Virus record (IMG/VR): IMGVR_UViG_3300044217_003911
Location: 1 to 40,333 of that record
Length of the DNA stretch: 40,333 bases
Reading direction: 5' to 3' (one strand)
Source of the DNA: a virus
Taxonomy: Duplodnaviria; Caudoviricetes
Shown: one piece after another, positions 13,306 to 24,006 of the stretch
Numbering within the stretch: position 1 is the stretch's first letter
Layout of the letters: each line of letters opens with the position of its first letter
Program-made: the position numbers and the translations under genes
Notes under the pieces: generated by a model
Told to the model about the DNA's origin: nothing
The model's input: the letters and a program-made list of their open reading frames with translations, nothing else
Database searches by the model: none

Positions 13306-13379
13306 CTCACTGGGGCAGCCAGAAACAAAAAAGCCCCGAGGTCAGTATGTTACTGATTCCTCAGGGCCTCATGTCTGTA

Positions 13380-13438
13380 TGGCGGAGGGACAGGGATTCG
13401 AACCCTGGAAAGGCTATTAACCTTTGCCGGTTTTCAAG
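13380..13438 (-). pseudogene. 3' half of tRNA-Ser(TGA): att site shared by island and prophage
   Basis: Reverse complement CTTGAAAACCGGCAAAGGTTAATAGCCTTTCCAGGGTTCGAATCCCTGTCCCTCCGCCA gives anticodon loop, long variable arm, T arm and CCA; the 5' half is absent. Confidence 0.9.
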
Positions 13439-13642
13439 TTACATGATTATCAAGCAAGCACCACTAAAACACTGACATATAAGGGATTTCGCGCCGGACG
13501 CCCGTGACAAGATCCCCTTGTAATGCCCTCAAATTCCCTTGTTGTGACAGGAGGCACCCACTGTCAGTCACGAATCCGTCACAGCGATATTCCCGCCTTG
13601 AGGCACTCGAAAAAACCCCACCGCCTCGTCTACTCTTTCCTT

Positions 13643-14200
13643 ATGGAATTATTTAATCAGTGGCACTACATCTTTGAGTTCACCGACGCCGAGCGCGCCA
13701 AGATCCAGGCCGAAACGCGACTGCTCACTCACCGAGCGGGATACGGCATTTTGGTTGGCGTGATCACGACCCTGGCCGTCTTCCTGTCGCAGTGGCCCTG
13801 GATGGGCGAGCCTCACCTAATCCATGGCTACGCCACCTACGGCTCGCTGCCGGCTGGCCTGGTGGTCGGGCTTCTGACGCCCCACTGGATCACTTGGCAC
13901 TGCTACAAGCGCTGGCGTGATGTATGGACACCCCTGGCCAGGTCCAGGCGAGAGCTGAAGGGCCTGGAGACCCAGCCACCCACTCGCCCGGCTACGCTTA
14001 TCGAGATGGTCGATCGTCGAGTGATCAAGCTAACCCCAGGAAACTGCACGGCCCTGCTGATGTTCGGCTTTTTGGCCATCGCCATGATCCTCGGGCCAAT
14101 CCTGATGCTGAATCCGATTACCCGCGCACTGGCCGCCCTATTCTTGTTGTGCAGCTTCTTTATCTCCCTTCTCTTGGGTGACCGCCTGGGGCGTCATTAA
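13643..14200 (+). CDS. Moron-like ~4-TM membrane protein
   Basis: Opposite strand to the late operon; hydrophobic pairs; likely start MELFNQ at 13643; stop overlaps the stop of the giant gene (ttaa, 14197-14200). Confidence 0.7.
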   Translation: MELFNQWHYIFEFTDAERAKIQAETRLLTHRAGYGILVGVITTLAVFLSQWPWMGEPHLIHGYATYGSLPAGLVVGLLTPHWITWHCYKRWRDVWTPLARSRRELKGLETQPPTRPATLIEMVDRRVIKLTPGNCTALLMFGFLAIAMILGPILMLNPITRALAALFLLCSFFISLLLGDRLGRH

Positions 14201-17200
14201 CGCCCCAGTACCTCGCGACGGTACTCCCTGTTGAAGTAATCCACCTCAGACTCGATAGCCTCTTCGATTCTCTCGACGGCCTCGTTCCGTTCATCTTCCG
14301 AGATTGCTTCGTCAGCCTCGATCGCGTCGCGCTCACTGCGCAGATCTTTGAGAACCTGCTCAACTTCAGTGGCCACGTCGAAGAGGTCGATCTTCGCCTG
14401 GTGGTTACGGTAGAAGGCCTCGGCCTTGTCGGCCGGCAGGTTATCCAGCTGCTCGGCGTATTGCCCGACTTCGTCCCGGCGCTGATAGAACGTATCCATG
14501 TCACCGTAATCGCTCACGCTGCCAAGAATCTTGCCGACGAACGGTATACGCCAGCGCTCCATCTTCTCACCTTGAGCAACGCGAGAAATAGCATCGACAG
14601 TCTTCTCGGTGAAGCCGTAGGCACCACCACCGTAAAAGTTCGTGAGGTGCTGGAAGGTCTCCGGCGCGATATCGACACTGCCTGATACATACTCGCTTCC
14701 GCCGGTGAGCTTGTTGAGGAACTCGGCGAATGACTTGTAAGCGTTCGGCGTCGATCGGAATGACCGCGAGCTGTCCGGCGAGGGCGTGCCAAACGGGAAC
14801 TCTTCCCGGTAAATCGGCTGCCCTGAAAAGTCCTCGTTAACCGCCAGCTGGGTGATCGAGCGCAACAGTGTGGGCGAGATGTTCTTCGCCAGCACATTCT
14901 CTGCATCATCGGACCCCTCAAAGCCCACCGGGCTAAAGCTGCCAAGAGCCGCGAGCATAAAGTCCTGGCCAGCGCTGACAAGGTCTTTCTCGCCACTCAG
15001 GACCGCCTCAAAATGCGTGCCAATAACGGAAAACACGTTGTACCCATAGGGCAGCGGAACCGAGACATAATCCTTGTCGCCGGTCATGAGAACCAAGTTC
15101 CGCTCCTTGATATAGCTTGGGACTTTATCCCAGTACAGCTGGCCATCCTCGTCCTCGTCGGAAATCATCCGGTTAAACATGCTGAGCACGAACGAGCCGG
15201 TGACCATGCCAGCCGCAAGCTTTTGGGCCAGGTTCATTCTCGACCAAGCGTTGATCCGGCTTTTTCCTCGCTGAGGCGGGTCGATCGTGACCATGGCCCT
15301 GGCGAAGTTGGCCGTACCCTGCACGCTGGCATTGAAGAACATGTAAGCCGAGTTGAAGAGCGTGCCTAGCTCGCCCCGACGGTTAAAGTTGACGGTCATG
15401 TTTTTGGCCAACGATGCCGCCTTAGGCCGTGAGATACCGGCTTTCCGTGCATTGACGTAGGCGCTCAGACGAACCGCGTTCTCAACTGCCCCGTTGACGT
15501 TTTCAACAAAGTCGGCGGTGGCCTTGCGCCCTTTGAGCATGGCTGCCATTGAACCACCGCTGGACCTGCGCATCATCTTCTGGATAGCTTTGGCCTGGCT
15601 GTCGATGTCCTTCATGTCGAAGTAGCCCGTCTTGGCACCATCTTCCATGAACTCCTGGAAGTAATGATCCCAGATGCGCCCGGGTCCGGTGGACCGAGAG
15701 GGCTTACCTGACAGCCCCCGGTAGGCGGCGCGCATGGCTGGACGGATATCGCGAGCCGTCTGGCGAAGGATATGCTTGCCTTTGATCTTGCCGTCTTCGC
15801 GGGTTTGCTCAGCCGAGAGGTTGAGCATCGCTGTTTGGACGTCGCGCAAGAAGTTGCTGATCAAGAACTCCGGGTTGTAGCTCGTCACCAGGCTTGCCAT
15901 CGTGCGCACGACGCCACCGATACCCCGGACCAAGATGTTGTTGCTCTCAGGCCCGACGTTGCGCATGGCGTTTAGCAGGCGCTCGTTATGGAGCTTGAGG
16001 TAGAAGGTCTGGCCGTTCGACTTGACCTTGAAGTAGCGGTCATTCATTTCCATGGCCACCGGGGCCAGCTCGACAAAGATCCGCTTCTCGCCGGTATCCG
16101 GATCGGTGCGGGTGACCTTCTGGCGCTGGACGTCAGGACGATCCCGAGTGAAAACCTCCCAGACGTCAGGGTTCGGGTTGTCGTTCATGAGCGAGAGCAG
16201 GGATTGCCCCACCTCGTTCTTGCGCCGGCGGACAAGCGACTGGGTGGTATCCACGATCGCCTGAGTAGACGGTGAGGCGGCCTTGGATCTACGACCAAGC
16301 GAGGTCCGGGCCTCGCTGCCAGAGATCTCGAAACCTCGTCCCGTGCTCTGACGGCGGGCACCCTGCTCTCCGCCCGGCGCGTCCTCATCCCGAGCCCAGC
16401 CCTTGAGTGGTACATAGGCCTCGTAGCTGGCCTCCCAGGCGTCCACGGTGCCATCGGTCTCTAGTCCGCCCTCTCGGATCGCCTCTCGGCGAAGCCGGAG
16501 CATTTCATAGACGATGTTGGCCAGGCGATCGAAGTCCTCCTGCTTGCCGCTGTTCTCGACCATCTCGATGATCTCGCTGGCCTCAGCGTTCGTCATGCCA
16601 GAACCGCCATCCTGGTAGCGGCTGTCGCCTGGGTTTCGCTCGGCGATGACTTGGTTGCGCTCTGGCGCGTGTCGGGCATACAGGTAGGCGTCCAATGCCG
16701 CCTGCTCGATGTCGGTCTCGGCCAGGCCATCAGCCAGACGTTTAACGTACTGCTCCTCGAGGTTGCGGAGATCCCGCTCGGTCTTGCCGTGGAAGAGCTC
16801 CTCGGCCAGGTAGGCATCGTTTTCCTCGTTGACCTGACCACCGGTCTCCTGGATCTTCTGCTCCAGACGCTTAATCGGCAGCATCTTGTCGGCGATCTTG
16901 CGCAGGAAGGTGTCTGTCAGGGATTCATCCGGCAGTCCGAAACGGGTCGAATCGTTGTCGCTGTAGGCACCACCGGGCGGCTCCTCGATATTGACGCTCG
17001 AATCCTCGCTGGCCTGGCCGGCATCGTTGTCGAGACTGTAGCGAGGATCTGTATCAGCGCGGCCCTCGGTCCAGGCCCACTCGGGCATCAGGCCTGTCTT
17101 CTGGTCAGCAAAGACTGTATCCAGGATCCCGGCGGTGCGGTTGTGCTCACCGTAGGGGCCGAAGTTCAACCAGCTGTTCTGACCCCGGGTCTCGCTGGTC

Positions 17201-20200
17201 AGGGCGCCAATAGCGGGGCCGTGGAACAGCCGGACGTGCGCCTGCCAGGCATTCTCCTCCCCGCGAGCGCGGAACCCAGCCCCTTCCAGGCCGTGGCCGA
17301 AGGCGTCGTGAACCGCTCGGAACAGGTCGTTAGCCAGCACTCGGCGGCGCGGGCCGTCCGGTGAGCCGAACGCCCACTTGATTCCGGTATCTTCGAGCAG
17401 CGGGTTGTCGGTTGGGTCGAAGTCCTCGTCGGTGCCGAAACCGTCCTCAGTGGTGAACACCGCCATTCGCTTATTGACCCGCAGGTCGCGCATCGCGTTC
17501 CAGGGGTTGCCGTCGTAAGGGTCGGTTTCCCCGTCGAAGAAATAGAACTCGTAGCCCGCATTCACCAGGGCATCATACTGAGCCCGGGTCTGGCGGACGA
17601 GATCCTGGTAGGCTTCCTTGACGCGCGGATCCTGGGGCGCGTGCTCCATCTCTTCATAGGCCTGAGCAATTCGCTCGGCCCGCTCGACATCGACCTCTAC
17701 GTATTCGGCTTGCCTTTGGAGGTCGATTCCGTTTTGTTCGGCGTATCGCTCGGCGACTCGGTTGAGCTCCGGGTCCGGCCCTGTTGCCCCTCGTATAGTC
17801 GGCGTACCCTCAAGCGGCGTTGTGCCTCGGCTCGGCGCCCGTCCTCCTCGGTTTCCGGTCGATTGACGTCGTCCTCCGTCATTGGTGTCTCCTGTCAGTG
17901 AGTAGCGCGGATCAGTTCCCTCGAAGGGGTTGTAGCTCGGATCGTAGACCATGTAGACCACGTCCGGTTCGCCGCCATTGAAGGGGGCGAATAACTCTTT
18001 ATCCCACCCCTCGGGGCGATAATCCTCATTCCAGCTATCCCGGCCAACCTCCTTGAAGCCGTTCACGGCATAGATATCAGGAAGCACTGTATCAAAGCCG
18101 TCGAGCTTAGTACCGCCTTGCTCGACAGCGAGGACCAGCATCGGATGAACCTTACCACCGCCATCAGAGAATACACTAACGATGTCGCCGTCTTCCTTGA
18201 TCGCCAGACCGCTCTTCCCGTCCGGCGTCATGAACAGGCGCATGTTCTGGTAGTCGTTGGGAGGATAGACGTAGACGGCGGCGCCGTACTTGGATTGCTT
18301 CTTCGACTCGTTGATGGCGTCGGTGAAGCGGCGCGCGCTCTCGGGTGAGGTATCCAGCTCCTGCAGCTCCACCTCAGGGAGGCGGGTATCGCGGAGAAGG
18401 TTCCGGAATGCGGGTTTCGGGCGGTAGCTGGCGACTACCCCCCGAAGTCCTCGATCATTTCCAGGGCTTCTGCGCGTGAAACTCCGTGCCGTCTCATGAC
18501 CATCTCGGCCAGGTCGTTGGGCGGCGAACTCTCTCCGCTGCCGGTCTCTCTCGCTAAGCTCGCGGCGCTGGCCGTCTCGGGATCCAGGCCTTCCTGGAAG
18601 GGCTCGGGCAGCATTGCTTCCCCTTCGGCCTCGAGGTGCGCTTCCGGATTCTCCAGATCCGGATAGGCCAGCTCCAGATACATCTCTCTGGTAAGTGGCA
18701 GTTCCTGCCGGATCATTAGCTGTACGATCGGATCCTCCCCAGCGGTTGAAATCAATTCCGCCGGCGTGATCCCAGATCTGTCGTCTTGTCTGCTCAAGAG
18801 TTGCCCTCCCGTTCTTGAAGTCAGTCCATACATCTACAATTTTAGCAGTGTTGGCGGCCTGCGCCTTATACCCAGGCCGAAAGAGTTCGCGGATCATCTC
18901 CCAAGTTATGGACTGCATCTCTCGAGGCAACACATCGCGCTTGGCAGCGGCGTTCCGATACGCCTCGGCGTAGATGGCGTAAGTCCCGCTGATGCCGTAG
19001 GCGCTGTTACTTCCCGGGCCGGTCTCGCCCGTCACGTTGCCGCCGAAGTTGTGGAGAACCTCTCGAGAGCCTCCGGCCAAGGGCTGTAGCAGGCCAGCTG
19101 CCACGGCGTGAGTGTCGATGGTCACGAAGCCACGCTGGCTGTTGGGCGCGACGATATTGTTGTAGAAGTTGCGGACTTTGTGCTGGCCACCCAGCTGGGC
19201 GTTGAGATTGGCATCGCTGCCGTCGCGCAGCAGGTCGACCGCTTTCTTGATCTCGTTGTTGCTACCCCAGGCGACCTTGGCGTTCTCACCCCTGTCGGTG
19301 GTGGCAAAGTCGCCGAGGCTGCCGTCCGGGTTGATGTTGCGATAGGCGCGATCGTTGAAGGTCTCGTCGAAGACGCGGATCCAGGCGCCCTGGCTCATGG
19401 CATCCTCGATCTCCGATAGCCGCTTGCCCTCGATCGTCTGACGCAGTGACGCGTAGCTGTCCTTGCCATAGACCCGGTTGAGGGTGTCGGTCATGGCTGG
19501 CGACCAGGCGGTATTCTGCTGCTCGGTCCAGGTGTCGAGAAGGCGCTCAGCAAGGCTGGCGTTCTGGAACCAGTCCTTCTGTGGGCTGAGGGCAGCGATA
19601 ACACCGGCGGTCTGCTTATTACTGAGGCCATAGCGCTCGGCCCAGGTTCTGGATACCCGGTTCGCGCCTTCGTACCAGCGCTTAACCTGGTCGCGCACGT
19701 CGCTGGGCACCATATCGAACAGCCACAGCAGGTTGCTCTCGACGTGGCTGCGAAGGCGGGCCAGCTTCTTCTGCGGGGTGTTCGCTCCTGCTGTTGGTCG
19801 GAAGTTTGGGTAGTTCTCGATCAGCTCTGCCTGGCGCTCGTCGAGTTGTGCCTTGCCCAAGGTCTTAATATCCAGCTGGCCGTAGTTGGCCTGGGGATCG
19901 AACGTCTTCTTCATCGCCTTGGGGAAGCGGACGCTGACGGTCGGCGCGTTCTTGACTCGCTTGGGCAGCCCCTTCTCCCCCTCACGGATCCGGTAGCGAA
20001 CCGTGTCGCCACCCCCTTCACGGCGAGCCAGGGCTGCCTGTGAATCGGCAATCAGGTCTACGATCTCCTTGCGTCCCCATTCCTTGGCCACCCGGGGTCC
20101 GAAAGCGCGGCGCAGCCAGCGGCGGATAGCGGAGACCATCCGATCCAGGGCGGTCGAGCTCGGATCGGTTTGAGCCAGATGGGCGGCGTACTCTTCGGCC

Positions 20201-23200
20201 ACCAGCCGGTTAGCCCCTTGCCGAGATAGCCCCTCGAGCTGACCTGCATAGAGTTCGCGGATCCGGTCTTTCCACTGCTTCGGCATATCGCGGTAGATGC
20301 CACCCAGCGCGGGGTCGAGGTCACTGCCCAGCCGCCGACGAACGCCCAGGTGAAAGGCCTCGTGGAGGATCGTGGAAGCGGTGTCGGACGTGCCGTTTGC
20401 GTTAGCGGATACTACCCAGATGGTGCCGTTGTCCTGCACCCCTTTGACCATACCTTGAACGCCGTCACGTTCGATGGCCTTACGCAGTGGGGCCGGAAGA
20501 CCGTTCTCGTTAGCGACGGCCTTGACTGGAATGCCGGCATCGGCGGCACGGCGAACGACAGCTTCAACCTCCCTTTGGGCAAGCGTCTTCTGTGTGGCGC
20601 GATAACGGGTGTCTTGGCCAGCCTGGCCCTCGTCAGCGGCAGCCTCATCACGTGCCTGGTCAGGATTGCGCTCGGTGGTAACCTCCACCGCCTGCACCTC
20701 ATGGCGCTTAAGCGAGGTTCGGCCACCGCTCTGGAGATTCTCCAGCCACACCTCGCCGCTGTCGGCGTACTCCAGTACCTGGTACGGGGTATTGCCGCGC
20801 GCGTAACCAGTGCGGTTGTTGAAGGTAACGGTATCGCCAGGCTCGGCGTTATTCAGGGCAGACTTGAGCTGCTCAACCCGCCGGGCTTTTCGCTTGTTTC
20901 TGTCCTGGGTTGTTGCAGCTGACCGACCGCGCTGACGAGACTTATCGCCAGCACCCTGGTTCCGAGGCTTGCGGTTGCTGCGCTGATTGCGCGTTGGAAT
21001 CTTGCCGAACGGCTTGGTGGTATCGCCATCACGCGACCAGGAGCGAACCTCGTCGGTGGTACTCTCGGTGATCTGCCCCAGGCCATTCCATCCTTCAGGG
21101 TAGTTGGCCAGGTAGCCGCGACGGGCCGCCTCCTTGGAGGGGAAGCCGACCATGACCTTGTGCTCGTCGAAATTACCCTGCTCGTCCAGCTGGTCGATGA
21201 CGTAGGTTTTGCCAGTGTCGGGCTGATCGCCGACAAAGACATCCACGTTGTCGCCGTCGGCACCCCGCGTGCCCTTGATATCCCCATAGTCGTGGGCGAG
21301 AGTGGACGCCCACTCGTTGCCGTCGGGGTCAGTGCCACGGCGGGTGGAGCCTTTGGGGTTCTCGATGGCGACTTCCATGCCCTGAACGTTGGCCCGCCCC
21401 TTGCGGTAGTTGCCGGCCTCGGCCTGCGCTGGCGTCGGGCTGGTGTTGGTCTGCTGGCCGGCTTCCTCGATACGCGCGCGCGTTGATTGATCGCCTGACT
21501 CGATCGCCTCCATGGCCTGCTCCGGCGTCATGCGACGGATTTCGCCATCAGGATAACCAAGATCGCCCAGCTGCGTTTTCATATCGCGGGTGACCTGGGT
21601 CGGCGCCGAGGTGGGCGTCTGCGATTGCTCAGGCTCGCGCAAGCCCTGGGCTTGACCATCCGGACCAACGCGGACGCGGGGCTTCTGATCCTGGCCGACG
21701 CGGACGCGCGGCTTGTTCTGACGGCGCTGTGGTGCTTCCTGGCCAGATTCCTGCAGATCGGACGGGGCCTGGCTTTCGCTCTGATTCACCCTGTCGGCCA
21801 CTTGGTTGTAGGTGTCACCGATCGTCTCGAGCTTCTGGCGGACCTGGTTGAGGCCTTCGTTGTCCTGGTTGGCCCGGGCCAGGGTCTCCTCCTCGAAGGC
21901 CTGCTGGGCCTGCCCAGCGGCGCTATCCAGGCGCTTGACCTCCTCATCGAGGCCCTGGTCGCTGGCTCGTTTGCGCAGGGATTTAAGCGCGTCGCCATCG
22001 ACCAGCCCGTCACGCTGCTTGCGCTGATCGGGGCCGAGATCCTGACGCGGCTGGCGAATCAGATCGCCCGGGTGCGTCGGGGCCTGATCCTGCTGTTCGA
22101 TCGTTTGGTTTTCCTGGCTAGCCTGGCGATCTTGGCCGGAGCGGGTTTCGCTGGTGTCGGGTGTGGCACCCGGCGTTTCCTCGAGCAGGTTGTCGGCCTC
22201 CTGCCCCTCCTGCGGCTGCTGGTCGATACCCTGAGGGCGGACCTCGGGCTCCTGCTGGCCTTCCTGGCCGCGCTGGCCGCGCTGGCCGCCTGCTGCAGCG
22301 CCCATGCCGGCCCCCATCGCACCACCGATCGCAAGGCCACCCATGGCCGCGTTGGCTACGTTATCGGTGGGCTCAATGTCTGAGTCGGCCTTGCCCATCA
22401 CGATGTTCTCGGACACCTGCTGGCCGGCCTCCTGGGGCATTTCCTCGAAGACACCCTCGCCGACGGTGGTGCGAAGCATGGAGCCAAGTCGGGTATTAGG
22501 GCCGCCGGTCAGCACCCTGGAAAGCGCACGGTCACCCATACCACCAAAGGCACCGGTAGCCATCCCGGAGAGCACGAACGCCTGGCTTGAGGCATCCTCG
22601 GCAAGCTTGTTGCGTGCCTCTTCGAACTCCATGTCGCCTTCGCTCATCAAGCTTTTCATGGCTTCGGAGTCAGCCAGCTGCTCTTCGCTCATGCCCTTGA
22701 TCTGCTCGCGGACCTCGCGCGAGGATCCGCCACCACCCATCAGGCCTTCGGCGATACCGCCAGCCAGGGTGGCTGTGGTTGCTGCGCGCTTGGCGGCTTT
22801 TTTCGGATCGATGCCTTTGGCCAAGTTCCATGCGTAAACGCCCTTGGACAGGGCCATCGAGGGTGCCATGGAGATAGCGGTCTCGGGGATCGACTCGGTG
22901 ACCCCGGAGAAGTAGGAACGCCAGTCAGACCAAGCCGGACCTGGCTTGCCTTGCTCGCTATCCCACCAGGCTTTCTGGCGAGCCTCCCGGGTTTCCGGGG
23001 TCAGCTCTCTCTCGTTGCGCTCGATGCGATCGCTGAGGAGCTCCTCGGATTCCTTGCCGTTCATCCACTCATCGGCCTGGTCGATAGAGTCGACCACTTC
23101 CTCACCGAAGACGTTGCGCACCGCTTCACGGGTGTTGAGCGCCGCACGGTCTGCCCCCATGGATAGCAGGTTGCCGAAGTCGGTAAGAACATCCGGCTCC

Positions 23201-24006
23201 TCGTCGGGCTCTTGGGGCTCCACCATGTCGCCAAGGCCGCGCCGACGAAGGCCTGGGGCGACCTTTGAGGAGGGATCTTGCTCGTCCTCCTCGTTGCCCG
23301 GCAGCAGGCCATCCAGGCCCAGGTTGCGAAGCCCGTCCTCGAGGGTCTTTCTCCCCTTTGTCGCCAAGTCGTCATCATCCGCGACAGGGGTTTTCAGGCC
23401 CAGGGTTTCGGGTTGTTGCTGGCCCGCCTCTTCCATGGTCTCGGAAAGCGACGCCTCGGATTCTGACAGCTCATTCTGGAGACGATCCTGAGACCGCCGG
23501 CGAATAGTAGGGTGCGCGCCTTCAGTTTTCTCGCGTGATTCGGCCAGTTCCTCGCGTTGCTTGGCGACTTCGCCGACCGACTGGCTCAGTTCTGGATCGA
23601 TGGCCGGCTGATCGCCACCCTCGCGATCTTCCATCAAGCCGACCACGGCCTCATTGAGGTTCGGATTGATCCGAGGCTTTTGGTCCTGCTTGTCCTCGAT
23701 TTTTTGCCCCTGATCGACGCCACCGGAATAGCTGGCATCCGGCACTGACAGGCCGCCCGACTCTTCCGTCCCCTCACTGCCTGACTCATCTCCGCCATTC
23801 CGGAACACGTCGTTGGCGGTGGCATTGAAGAAATCGTCCCGTAGCTTACGCTCGGCGCCCTCGGGTGCCTTGGGTCTGACGTGGCGGTCATAGAATTTAG
23901 CGCGGACAGCTTGCCGAGTCTCCCAGCTTGACTCCTTGAACTCGGGTGACTCGGCGACCTGTTTCCAGGTTGGGGTCTTATTGCTCTCTTGGTTAGCGGC
24001 TTTCAC
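14197..24006 (-). CDS. Large polyvalent virion/ejection protein (InPase, HExxH peptidase, glycosylase-like, GNAT-like, HDxxGH, C-terminal LPD38)
   Basis: 3269 aa; InPase-like IENPKGSTR...HDYGDI..GADGDNVDVF...FDEHKVM (~21005-21470); HEAFH at 20350-20364; LPD38-like WDKVPSYIKERNLV...VPLPYGYN near the C-terminus; last gene of the ejection cluster. Confidence 0.9.
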   Translation of the reverse strand: MKAANQESNKTPTWKQVAESPEFKESSWETRQAVRAKFYDRHVRPKAPEGAERKLRDDFFNATANDVFRNGGDESGSEGTEESGGLSVPDASYSGGVDQGQKIEDKQDQKPRINPNLNEAVVGLMEDREGGDQPAIDPELSQSVGEVAKQREELAESREKTEGAHPTIRRRSQDRLQNELSESEASLSETMEEAGQQQPETLGLKTPVADDDDLATKGRKTLEDGLRNLGLDGLLPGNEEDEQDPSSKVAPGLRRRGLGDMVEPQEPDEEPDVLTDFGNLLSMGADRAALNTREAVRNVFGEEVVDSIDQADEWMNGKESEELLSDRIERNERELTPETREARQKAWWDSEQGKPGPAWSDWRSYFSGVTESIPETAISMAPSMALSKGVYAWNLAKGIDPKKAAKRAATTATLAGGIAEGLMGGGGSSREVREQIKGMSEEQLADSEAMKSLMSEGDMEFEEARNKLAEDASSQAFVLSGMATGAFGGMGDRALSRVLTGGPNTRLGSMLRTTVGEGVFEEMPQEAGQQVSENIVMGKADSDIEPTDNVANAAMGGLAIGGAMGAGMGAAAGGQRGQRGQEGQQEPEVRPQGIDQQPQEGQEADNLLEETPGATPDTSETRSGQDRQASQENQTIEQQDQAPTHPGDLIRQPRQDLGPDQRKQRDGLVDGDALKSLRKRASDQGLDEEVKRLDSAAGQAQQAFEEETLARANQDNEGLNQVRQKLETIGDTYNQVADRVNQSESQAPSDLQESGQEAPQRRQNKPRVRVGQDQKPRVRVGPDGQAQGLREPEQSQTPTSAPTQVTRDMKTQLGDLGYPDGEIRRMTPEQAMEAIESGDQSTRARIEEAGQQTNTSPTPAQAEAGNYRKGRANVQGMEVAIENPKGSTRRGTDPDGNEWASTLAHDYGDIKGTRGADGDNVDVFVGDQPDTGKTYVIDQLDEQGNFDEHKVMVGFPSKEAARRGYLANYPEGWNGLGQITESTTDEVRSWSRDGDTTKPFGKIPTRNQRSNRKPRNQGAGDKSRQRGRSAATTQDRNKRKARRVEQLKSALNNAEPGDTVTFNNRTGYARGNTPYQVLEYADSGEVWLENLQSGGRTSLKRHEVQAVEVTTERNPDQARDEAAADEGQAGQDTRYRATQKTLAQREVEAVVRRAADAGIPVKAVANENGLPAPLRKAIERDGVQGMVKGVQDNGTIWVVSANANGTSDTASTILHEAFHLGVRRRLGSDLDPALGGIYRDMPKQWKDRIRELYAGQLEGLSRQGANRLVAEEYAAHLAQTDPSSTALDRMVSAIRRWLRRAFGPRVAKEWGRKEIVDLIADSQAALARREGGGDTVRYRIREGEKGLPKRVKNAPTVSVRFPKAMKKTFDPQANYGQLDIKTLGKAQLDERQAELIENYPNFRPTAGANTPQKKLARLRSHVESNLLWLFDMVPSDVRDQVKRWYEGANRVSRTWAERYGLSNKQTAGVIAALSPQKDWFQNASLAERLLDTWTEQQNTAWSPAMTDTLNRVYGKDSYASLRQTIEGKRLSEIEDAMSQGAWIRVFDETFNDRAYRNINPDGSLGDFATTDRGENAKVAWGSNNEIKKAVDLLRDGSDANLNAQLGGQHKVRNFYNNIVAPNSQRGFVTIDTHAVAAGLLQPLAGGSREVLHNFGGNVTGETGPGSNSAYGISGTYAIYAEAYRNAAAKRDVLPREMQSITWEMIRELFRPGYKAQAANTAKIVDVWTDFKNGRATLEQTRRQIWDHAGGIDFNRWGGSDRTANDPAGTATYQRDVSGAGLSGSGESGSAPRGRRGSNAARALPGRPGSRDGQRRELSERDRQRREFAAQRPGRDGHETARSFTRRSPGNDRGLRGVVASYRPKPAFRNLLRDTRLPEVELQELDTSPESARRFTDAINESKKQSKYGAAVYVYPPNDYQNMRLFMTPDGKSGLAIKEDGDIVSVFSDGGGKVHPMLVLAVEQGGTKLDGFDTVLPDIYAVNGFKEVGRDSWNEDYRPEGWDKELFAPFNGGEPDVVYMVYDPSYNPFEGTDPRYSLTGDTNDGGRRQSTGNRGGRAPSRGTTPLEGTPTIRGATGPDPELNRVAERYAEQNGIDLQRQAEYVEVDVERAERIAQAYEEMEHAPQDPRVKEAYQDLVRQTRAQYDALVNAGYEFYFFDGETDPYDGNPWNAMRDLRVNKRMAVFTTEDGFGTDEDFDPTDNPLLEDTGIKWAFGSPDGPRRRVLANDLFRAVHDAFGHGLEGAGFRARGEENAWQAHVRLFHGPAIGALTSETRGQNSWLNFGPYGEHNRTAGILDTVFADQKTGLMPEWAWTEGRADTDPRYSLDNDAGQASEDSSVNIEEPPGGAYSDNDSTRFGLPDESLTDTFLRKIADKMLPIKRLEQKIQETGGQVNEENDAYLAEELFHGKTERDLRNLEEQYVKRLADGLAETDIEQAALDAYLYARHAPERNQVIAERNPGDSRYQDGGSGMTNAEASEIIEMVENSGKQEDFDRLANIVYEMLRLRREAIREGGLETDGTVDAWEASYEAYVPLKGWARDEDAPGGEQGARRQSTGRGFEISGSEARTSLGRRSKAASPSTQAIVDTTQSLVRRRKNEVGQSLLSLMNDNPNPDVWEVFTRDRPDVQRQKVTRTDPDTGEKRIFVELAPVAMEMNDRYFKVKSNGQTFYLKLHNERLLNAMRNVGPESNNILVRGIGGVVRTMASLVTSYNPEFLISNFLRDVQTAMLNLSAEQTREDGKIKGKHILRQTARDIRPAMRAAYRGLSGKPSRSTGPGRIWDHYFQEFMEDGAKTGYFDMKDIDSQAKAIQKMMRRSSGGSMAAMLKGRKATADFVENVNGAVENAVRLSAYVNARKAGISRPKAASLAKNMTVNFNRRGELGTLFNSAYMFFNASVQGTANFARAMVTIDPPQRGKSRINAWSRMNLAQKLAAGMVTGSFVLSMFNRMISDEDEDGQLYWDKVPSYIKERNLVLMTGDKDYVSVPLPYGYNVFSVIGTHFEAVLSGEKDLVSAGQDFMLAALGSFSPVGFEGSDDAENVLAKNISPTLLRSITQLAVNEDFSGQPIYREEFPFGTPSPDSSRSFRSTPNAYKSFAEFLNKLTGGSEYVSGSVDIAPETFQHLTNFYGGGAYGFTEKTVDAISRVAQGEKMERWRIPFVGKILGSVSDYGDMDTFYQRRDEVGQYAEQLDNLPADKAEAFYRNHQAKIDLFDVATEVEQVLKDLRSERDAIEADEAISEDERNEAVERIEEAIESEVDYFNREYRREVLGR
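17697..17882 (-). CDS. Nested +1-frame small ORF inside the polyvalent gene (candidate inhibitor)
   Basis: AGGAG (17889-17893) 6 nt before ATG; starts right after a TDPRYSL linker; host frame is R/G-rich over its first half. Confidence 0.5.
   Translation of the reverse strand: MTEDDVNRPETEEDGRRAEAQRRLRVRRLYEGQQGRTRSSTESPSDTPNKTESTSKGKPNT
18435..18797 (-). CDS. Nested +1-frame acidic protein (120 aa) inside the polyvalent gene (candidate immunity/inhibitor)
   Basis: GGAGG (18805-18809) 7 nt before an in-frame TTG; about 26 D/E versus 8 R/K; amphipathic helical pattern; host frame degenerates into R/G/S low complexity over this span. Confidence 0.72.
   Translation of the reverse strand: MSRQDDRSGITPAELISTAGEDPIVQLMIRQELPLTREMYLELAYPDLENPEAHLEAEGEAMLPEPFQEGLDPETASAASLARETGSGESSPPNDLAEMVMRRHGVSRAEALEMIEDFGG

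Follow-up and report, generated by a model that had tools for sequence, protein, structure and literature searches.

Small +1-frame genes nested in a giant phage gene of polyvalent type are paired with its modules and are candidate module-specific inhibitors

The embedded spanin genes of phage lambda, Rz and Rz1, are a familiar example of a small +1-frame gene that lies inside a larger gene, its functional partner. Here we describe two small genes, A and B, nested in the +1 frame of a giant gene of a Caudoviricetes virus (IMG/VR record IMGVR_UViG_3300044217_003911, positions 1 to 40,333; this whole stretch of 40,333 nucleotides (nt) is called the window). Unlike Rz/Rz1, which form one fixed lysis pair, they belong to a modular, swappable set. 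In ShiLan, an alternate-frame HNH gene likewise lies in an insertion of a phage methylase gene, the main frame staying open as a loop (PMC11855218); it is a selfish homing nuclease, whereas the small partners described here are tied to a neighbouring in-frame module. OAFI designs also place an inner gene in another frame within a flexible stretch of the gene around it (10.1101/2024.11.07.622342); they are engineered, whereas the nested partners are natural and repeated.

Two groups of phage proteins are closest to the giant gene product. Polyvalent proteins (PMC5512222) are likewise giant and multi-enzymatic, contain InPase and LPD38 (both listed there as phage-type polyvalent domains) as well as HExxH and GNAT-like modules, and are predicted to be injected with the DNA. 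In MuF toxin–immunity pairs of temperate phages (PMC5576092), a virion-linked variable enzyme domain is likewise accompanied by an adjacent open reading frame (ORF) of <150 amino acids (aa), the C-terminal MuF toxins being followed by small immunity ORFs. In contrast to the MuF pairs, the modules in the window are internal and serial, and the host gene itself encloses, in a different reading frame, a partner that can stand upstream of its module and fuses with neighbouring partners; no MuF match was found in the giant protein. In the main text of PMC5512222 the words 'overlap' and 'self-intoxication' each occur 0 times, and partner genes, DUF7178 and the HDxxGH module were not encountered in the passages drawn on here. 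Searches of the open-licence PMC and bioRxiv literature turned up no account of polyvalent proteins with nested partner genes that are serial and module-specific, and no paper for DUF7178; a nested scaffold gene described in 10.64898/2026.09.13.751334 is in frame and not relevant to +1 partners. Polyvalent proteins, toxin–immunity cassettes and embedded genes are each already known, and what appears to be new is the serial nesting of module-specific partners.

The giant gene lies on the minus strand (14197..24006; ORF 24006–14197, 3269 aa in the ORF listing of the window), as do all features of it given below. Portal, head, tail-fibre and internal virion genes stand upstream of it on the same strand, so that it closes the structural block. 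Its product matched phrog_616 and phrog_10089 (DarB-like) and, above the Pfam cut-offs, InPase (PF18823, aa 860–991, 21034..21429, E 2.9e-53), DUF7178 (PF23802, aa 1413–1516, E 1.7e-25; module at 18742..19941) and LPD38 (PF18857, aa 2959–3157, 14536..15132, E 3.3e-41). Further modules are a zincin-like HExxH...E metallopeptidase-like stretch (20010..20607, limits approximate; motif HEAFH at 20364–20350), a GNAT-like module (17917..18429) and a module with an HDxxGH motif (17047..17823). Several disparate enzyme and LPD domains thus occur in one large polypeptide that is encoded among virion structural genes, and on these sequence features we class the giant protein as a polyvalent-type virion protein. 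It is likely an internal virion or ejection protein. Packaging is suggested by analogy, because an LPD38-bearing giant protein was detected in phi24B virions, namely gp47, a polyvalent protein of 2811 aa that is proposed to be an ejection protein (10.64898/2026.04.10.717836); its listed domains differ, and the comparison is by description only.

An earlier reading of the window from its letters alone (the sequence-only reading) had proposed that two linkers of the giant gene each hold a +1-frame ORF with its own Shine-Dalgarno sequence. Both ORFs are present in Arg/Gly-rich linkers: A at 18797–18435 (18435..18797; 120 aa) and B at 17882–17697 (17697..17882; 61 aa). Shine-Dalgarno-like motifs were found for both, AGGAG (17893–17889; 17889..17893) 6 nt ahead of the ATG of B and GGGAGG (18805..18810) for A. 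For A, the start backed by a ribosome-binding site is TTG 18797 and not the upstream ATG 18833, which would give 132 aa; homologues have an ATG at roughly the same place, as judged by eye. Off-frame ORFs of at least 35 aa inside the giant gene (20 in +1 and 3 in +2) were scored with the codon statistics of ten other genes of the window. Only A and B of these 23 scored coding-like (0.10 and 0.03 in their own frame, −0.16 and −0.12 in the main frame). Their content of Asp plus Glu was 0.20–0.22, compared with 0.00–0.05 in the other 18 +1 ORFs, which are S/T/P/R-rich, as expected of the ordinary shadows they had been taken for. In the Arg-rich linker after InPase (20990–20850) the codon score marginally favoured +1 (0.01 vs −0.01), with no acidic peptide, and no gene was called there.

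The two ORFs hold three partner families. ORF A is a fusion of A1 (18582..18752), an acidic family of ~55 aa with the core motif PLTRENYL that is the partner of DUF7178, and A2 (18435..18557), a family of ~30–40 aa that is the partner of the GNAT-like module and stops right before it. ORF B, the partner of the HDxxGH module, has a conserved core of ~20 aa (PETEEDG...RR), and its tail overlaps the start of that module.

Selection on the +1 frame was examined in homologues. Eighty viral loci were fetched by their HDxxGH module, and 55 non-redundant ones were stacked gap-free on the main-frame HDxxGH anchor. At codons −26 to −13 before HDxxGH, the conserved residues were those of the +1 frame (E 95%, R 96%), and variability within the main codon was usually highest at base one, which is the wobble base of the +1 codon. 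From codon −12 on, the usual third-position variability returned. The +1 frame was open and had a start codon in 53/55 loci, so that a check suggested with the sequence-only reading, on stops in and conservation of the +1 frame among homologues, came out in favour of the nested genes. Considering nested copies only, the ratio of non-synonymous to synonymous differences per site (pN/pS) in the +1 frame and the main frame was 0.49 and 1.42 for A1 (32 pairs), 0.38 and 1.51 for A2 (96 pairs) and 0.40 and 1.51 for B (492 pairs); because these pairs lack independence and their alignment followed the +1 peptide, they are weaker as support, and the gap-free stack is the cleaner test. Control stretches in module domains showed the reverse (0.28–0.30 in the main frame, 1.37–1.60 in +1). 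A1 had a start codon in 48/48 loci and a Shine-Dalgarno-like motif in 47/48 (loose pattern, no control), and the stop of A2 lay within one codon of the motif end in 33/35. Purifying selection in the alternate frame was thus found together with an own start and an own stop, which are the marks of a nested gene.

These results bear on the possibility that the +1 ORFs are functionless shadows or dead remnants. In its C-terminal half B does merely shadow HDxxGH, and its stops vary there; A and B are, moreover, predicted from sequence. Against this possibility speak purifying selection that is specific to the frame, the conservation of starts and stops, the size of the families and the free-standing copies, and so does a survey of 290 host ORFs (redundant) that held 161 candidates in +1 and 13 in +2, 126 of the 161 belonging to four families. 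We therefore regard A and B as almost certainly real genes, and their lack of function as hardly credible. The main-frame linker is an unconstrained passenger and the +1 gene the constrained frame. The term 'overprinted', used in the sequence-only reading, accordingly has the relation the wrong way round. Since the +1 frame is conserved and the main-frame linker unconstrained, the layout looks like the capture of a small gene rather than overprinting.

Pairing of partners with modules was surveyed in 312 loci plus the window, with counts based on non-redundant profile hits. A1 followed DUF7178 directly on the same strand in 60/62 hits (59 in +1 and 1 free-standing in frame); the remaining 2 were convergent genes directly after the DUF7178 gene. 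A2 adjoined the GNAT-like module on its upstream side in 37/37, and B preceded HDxxGH in 69/70, the remaining hit being truncated where its contig ends. More distant HDxxGH modules were preceded by family C, the fourth, in 10/10. In the fair subset, partner hits in loci fetched via another module, 19/19 stood beside their own module. The co-occurrence check proposed earlier, free-standing copies included, thus gave 62/62 for A1, 37/37 for A2 and 69/70 for B, and turned up free-standing and convergent A1. The proposal of one partner per adjacent module stood as far as strict pairing with one module is concerned, and had to be amended in that three families occupy two ORFs. Seen from the modules, A1 accompanied DUF7178 in 50/69 cases (31 nested; in the other 19 the main frame stops at A1 or close to it), A2 the GNAT-like module in 35/61, and B or C the HDxxGH module in 61/99. 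Partner families are fused where their modules are neighbours. In a quick tree of HDxxGH, B was limited to one clade (31/34 rows) and C to another (7/15 rows); to each subclade of HDxxGH there thus belongs, by profile matching, a partner family of its own.

A small cognate gene adjacent to the effector, as in polymorphic toxin systems, was therefore found. Another hallmark of such systems, a C-terminal effector with its immunity gene downstream, was absent from the window, where the modules are all internal and A2 and B lie upstream; DUF7178 was C-terminal in 27/70 host ORFs. A1 was acidic, with a mean net charge of −4.4 and a negative charge in 46/50 sequences.

Several loci showed further arrangements. 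Upstream of HDxxGH, a recurring +1 peptide (PPDDP.F) follows a different unnamed module in L005, L006, L014, L078, L079 and L098, and probably represents one more family of partners. In L023, L051, L093, L096 and L141, the place right after DUF7178 is taken by acidic +1 ORFs that have no relation to A1, which suggests partner replacement. A hidden two-gene run is formed in L318 (1700–1920) and L010, where the start of B follows within a few bases on the end of another nested +1 ORF (~70 aa). The near-identical L083 and L084 differ in whether DUF7178 is followed by an additional C-terminal domain ahead of A1, which remains downstream and free-standing.

The +1 peptides could in principle be made by programmed frameshifting, either as an early-ending DUF7178-A1 fusion or as an internally started B-HDxxGH product that shifts back. 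Conservation around B does cross from the +1 to the main frame over ~5 codons, and one called protein (P0065, a single sequence) joins DUF7178 and A1 in frame. Many loci, however, have a +1 stop just ahead of a start codon backed by a Shine-Dalgarno sequence, free-standing and opposite-strand copies of A1 exist, the A2 frame is closed ahead of its module by a stop that is conserved, and no slippery heptamer was seen by eye at the crossover in the window. We consider frameshifting improbable.

The partner families are widespread among called proteins. The A1 profile matched 1,508 clusters among 1.84 billion called proteins, and such called genes may be free-standing or come from broken contigs. 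The best 150 of the 1,508 clusters had a median length of 80 aa; 5 exceeded 200 aa, and the four longest matched the profile partly or not at all and look spurious. By eye, the best 150 included A1+A2, A1+B and A1+C fusions and one protein in which DUF7178 and A1 are joined in frame. The A2 profile found 8 called proteins of 55–69 aa. No partner family had a consistent Pfam or PHROG match, the A1 profile matched nothing meaningful among PDB sequences, and neither ORF A (blastn) nor P0004 (tblastn) matched the phage collection.

Swapping of a cassette in the middle of the ORF, as the sequence-only reading had proposed, was seen in a prophage of Halomonas sp. NO4 (L098). It matched the window over InPase, HExxH (a 48% identical block), HDxxGH and the C-terminal part at 48–76% identity. 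DUF7178 and GNAT were absent; another module stood in their place, and the +1 peptide after it, joined to B, was a different one. The backbone and B are thus kept while the DUF7178+GNAT block is replaced, which is a variable effector on a conserved carrier, and the modules occur in many host contexts. That standard gene callers miss the nested genes was borne out by profile hits in 3/8 deposited phage regions, in which the partner is unannotated: A2 in Limnohabitans phage DC33, A1 in Rhodobacteraceae phage LS06-2018-MD07 and B in the metagenomic ctQRb9. MinM2 and UtzChips had partner-like +1 peptides by eye, and the remaining 3/8 regions had none. In Microbacterium phage UtzChips, the minor capsid protein encoded by gene 4 (L314:1700-1900) ends in a GNAT-like module, with an unannotated +1 ORF of ~47 aa just upstream.

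The enzymatic identities that the sequence-only reading had assigned to the modules stood in part. InPase was confirmed by Pfam, and the HExxH and HDxxGH motifs are present (no Pfam match was found for the HExxH module). The 'glycosylase' and 'GNAT' labels, in contrast, come solely from homology to phage proteins annotated by their depositors. The DUF7178 profile aligned with Microbacterium phage Cece gp22, annotated 'glycosylase' (Prob 98.8). The GNAT-like module matched, by tblastn, Streptomyces phage proteins annotated as acetyltransferase (E down to 4e-11) and minor capsid proteins, of which it forms the end; it had no Pfam or PDB sequence match. The HDxxGH model was confident when based on an alignment (predicted local distance difference test score 94; 36 from a single sequence). 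It matched no solved structure, the best comparisons being VIA (Z 2.9, root-mean-square deviation 5.7, 98 aligned) and YbeY (Z 2.0, root-mean-square deviation 5.0, 105 aligned). The HDxxGH and DUF7178 profiles matched nothing meaningful among PDB sequences, and the ESM Atlas returned unnamed or DUF7178 viral clusters only.

We hypothesize that the partners are module-specific inhibitors, a reading to which we give a probability of roughly 0.6 on the comparative sequence data. In this view, swappable modules are strung together in the giant gene, and three of them carry their own small +1 partner gene in the adjacent linker. Translation of the partners probably begins at ribosome-binding sites of their own within the shared late mRNA, and the partners are predicted to bind and inhibit their own module while the polyprotein is made; the module would then act uninhibited after its likely injection by the virion into a new host. 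The HExxH module may cut the polyprotein. As to origin, a two-gene effector–partner unit, as found at MuF-type gene ends, may have become internal, the main frame coming to read through the small gene and thereby producing the Arg/Gly-rich linker. Inhibition is favoured because of the small size of the partners, their one-to-one pairing and their clade-specific replacement, because A1 is acidic beside a probable DNA-acting enzyme, and because many DUF7178 loci have a terminal, toxin–immunity-like layout and A1 is kept even when inverted.

The same pairing, selection and fusion would be expected of chaperones, loading adaptors or activators of the module, which fit the genomic data almost as well. 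Such roles would also accord with the existence of modules that lack a partner and keep their motifs, and harm done by a module to the infected cell might extend to the phage that has just entered. We nevertheless regard them as clearly less probable than inhibition: the convergent A1 genes imply that A1 is expressed independently of the structural mRNA, which would suit immunity better than help during translation, and the C-terminal position of DUF7178 and the acidity of A1 fit inhibitors.

A number of observations weigh against inhibition, or against the pairing on which it draws. No partner profile match was found for 19/69 DUF7178 (2 of them with a convergent gene), 26/61 GNAT-like and 38/99 HDxxGH modules. 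A composition test detected a coding-like +1 window in 6/19, 21/26 and 13/38 of these (mid-domain controls: 1/69, 4/61 and 2/99), which leaves 13/19, 5/26 and 25/38 without one; more partner types therefore exist, yet some modules have none. Many partnerless modules keep their conserved motifs (DUF7178 12/18, GNAT 19/25, HDxxGH 23/40). Around the solo actinophage relatives Rizal gp102, Speedwell gp78 and Cece gp22, no convincing nearby family match was found (best E 0.047). The co-occurrence is inflated by physical linkage and shared descent, the loci were fetched by module, B has a single origin on the HDxxGH tree, and the direction from free-standing to nested is unrooted. MuF immunity genes differ from A2 and B, whose place is upstream of the module. 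The enzyme identities of the modules are weak: DUF7178 gave no Pfam, PDB-sequence or hhalign match to HhH-GPD proteins of the Nth/MutY/AlkA type (12 sequences), and the HDxxGH model gave no Foldseek hit at E ≤ 0.001, which does not make its fold new.

Inhibition could also serve mainly from the prophage, the nested genes being superinfection-immunity factors that guard the lysogen against modules injected by related phages and have little role in virion production. This shares the mechanism of the reading preferred here and differs from it in timing. The element carries an integrase, whose gene comes after the giant ORF in the window annotation, convergent A1 copies exist, and kin protection has been proposed for MuF systems (PMC5576092). 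However, no sigma-70-like promoter was found in 16800–21600 (0.9 expected), which makes the nested copies probably dependent on the structural transcript, and a predominantly lysogenic role seems very unlikely.

Module-specific inhibition may be an instance of a general rule, by which injection polyproteins grow by serially swallowing effector-plus-inhibitor pairs, the effector in frame and the inhibitor as a +1 linker; to us the case for and against this rule is evenly balanced. If it is true, thousands of phage inhibitors would lie hidden without annotation, among them a DNA-mimic-like one directed at a glycosylase-like enzyme, and nested partners would mark which unknown domains are toxic. 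The hypothesis offers testable answers to how a phage may build a polyprotein of potentially harmful enzymes without poisoning the producer cell, and to how toxin–partner pairs can be inserted within a gene. Where a linker is Arg/Gly-rich and its +1 frame acidic, this combination would be an easy sign of hidden genes as well as of effector domains of unassigned function. Since Limnohabitans phage DC33 has a named host, its nested gene is directly testable.

Some minor features of the giant gene and its surroundings were also recorded. D-x-R-Y motifs lie at four module borders of the giant protein (window positions 20607, 19998, 17907 and 17043). R[FY]S, present at four module borders in the window, was considered as a conserved cut site and rejected, as it occurred in only 5/100, 3/55 and 0/52 homologues. 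On the plus strand, an ORF for a hydrophobic protein of 225 aa without a family match (13523–14200) is convergent with the giant gene and touches its end. A stretch at ~13350–13420, located between the structural block and the integrase, resembles a tRNA 3' end, although ARAGORN found no full tRNA in it, and we take it to be a possible attachment site.

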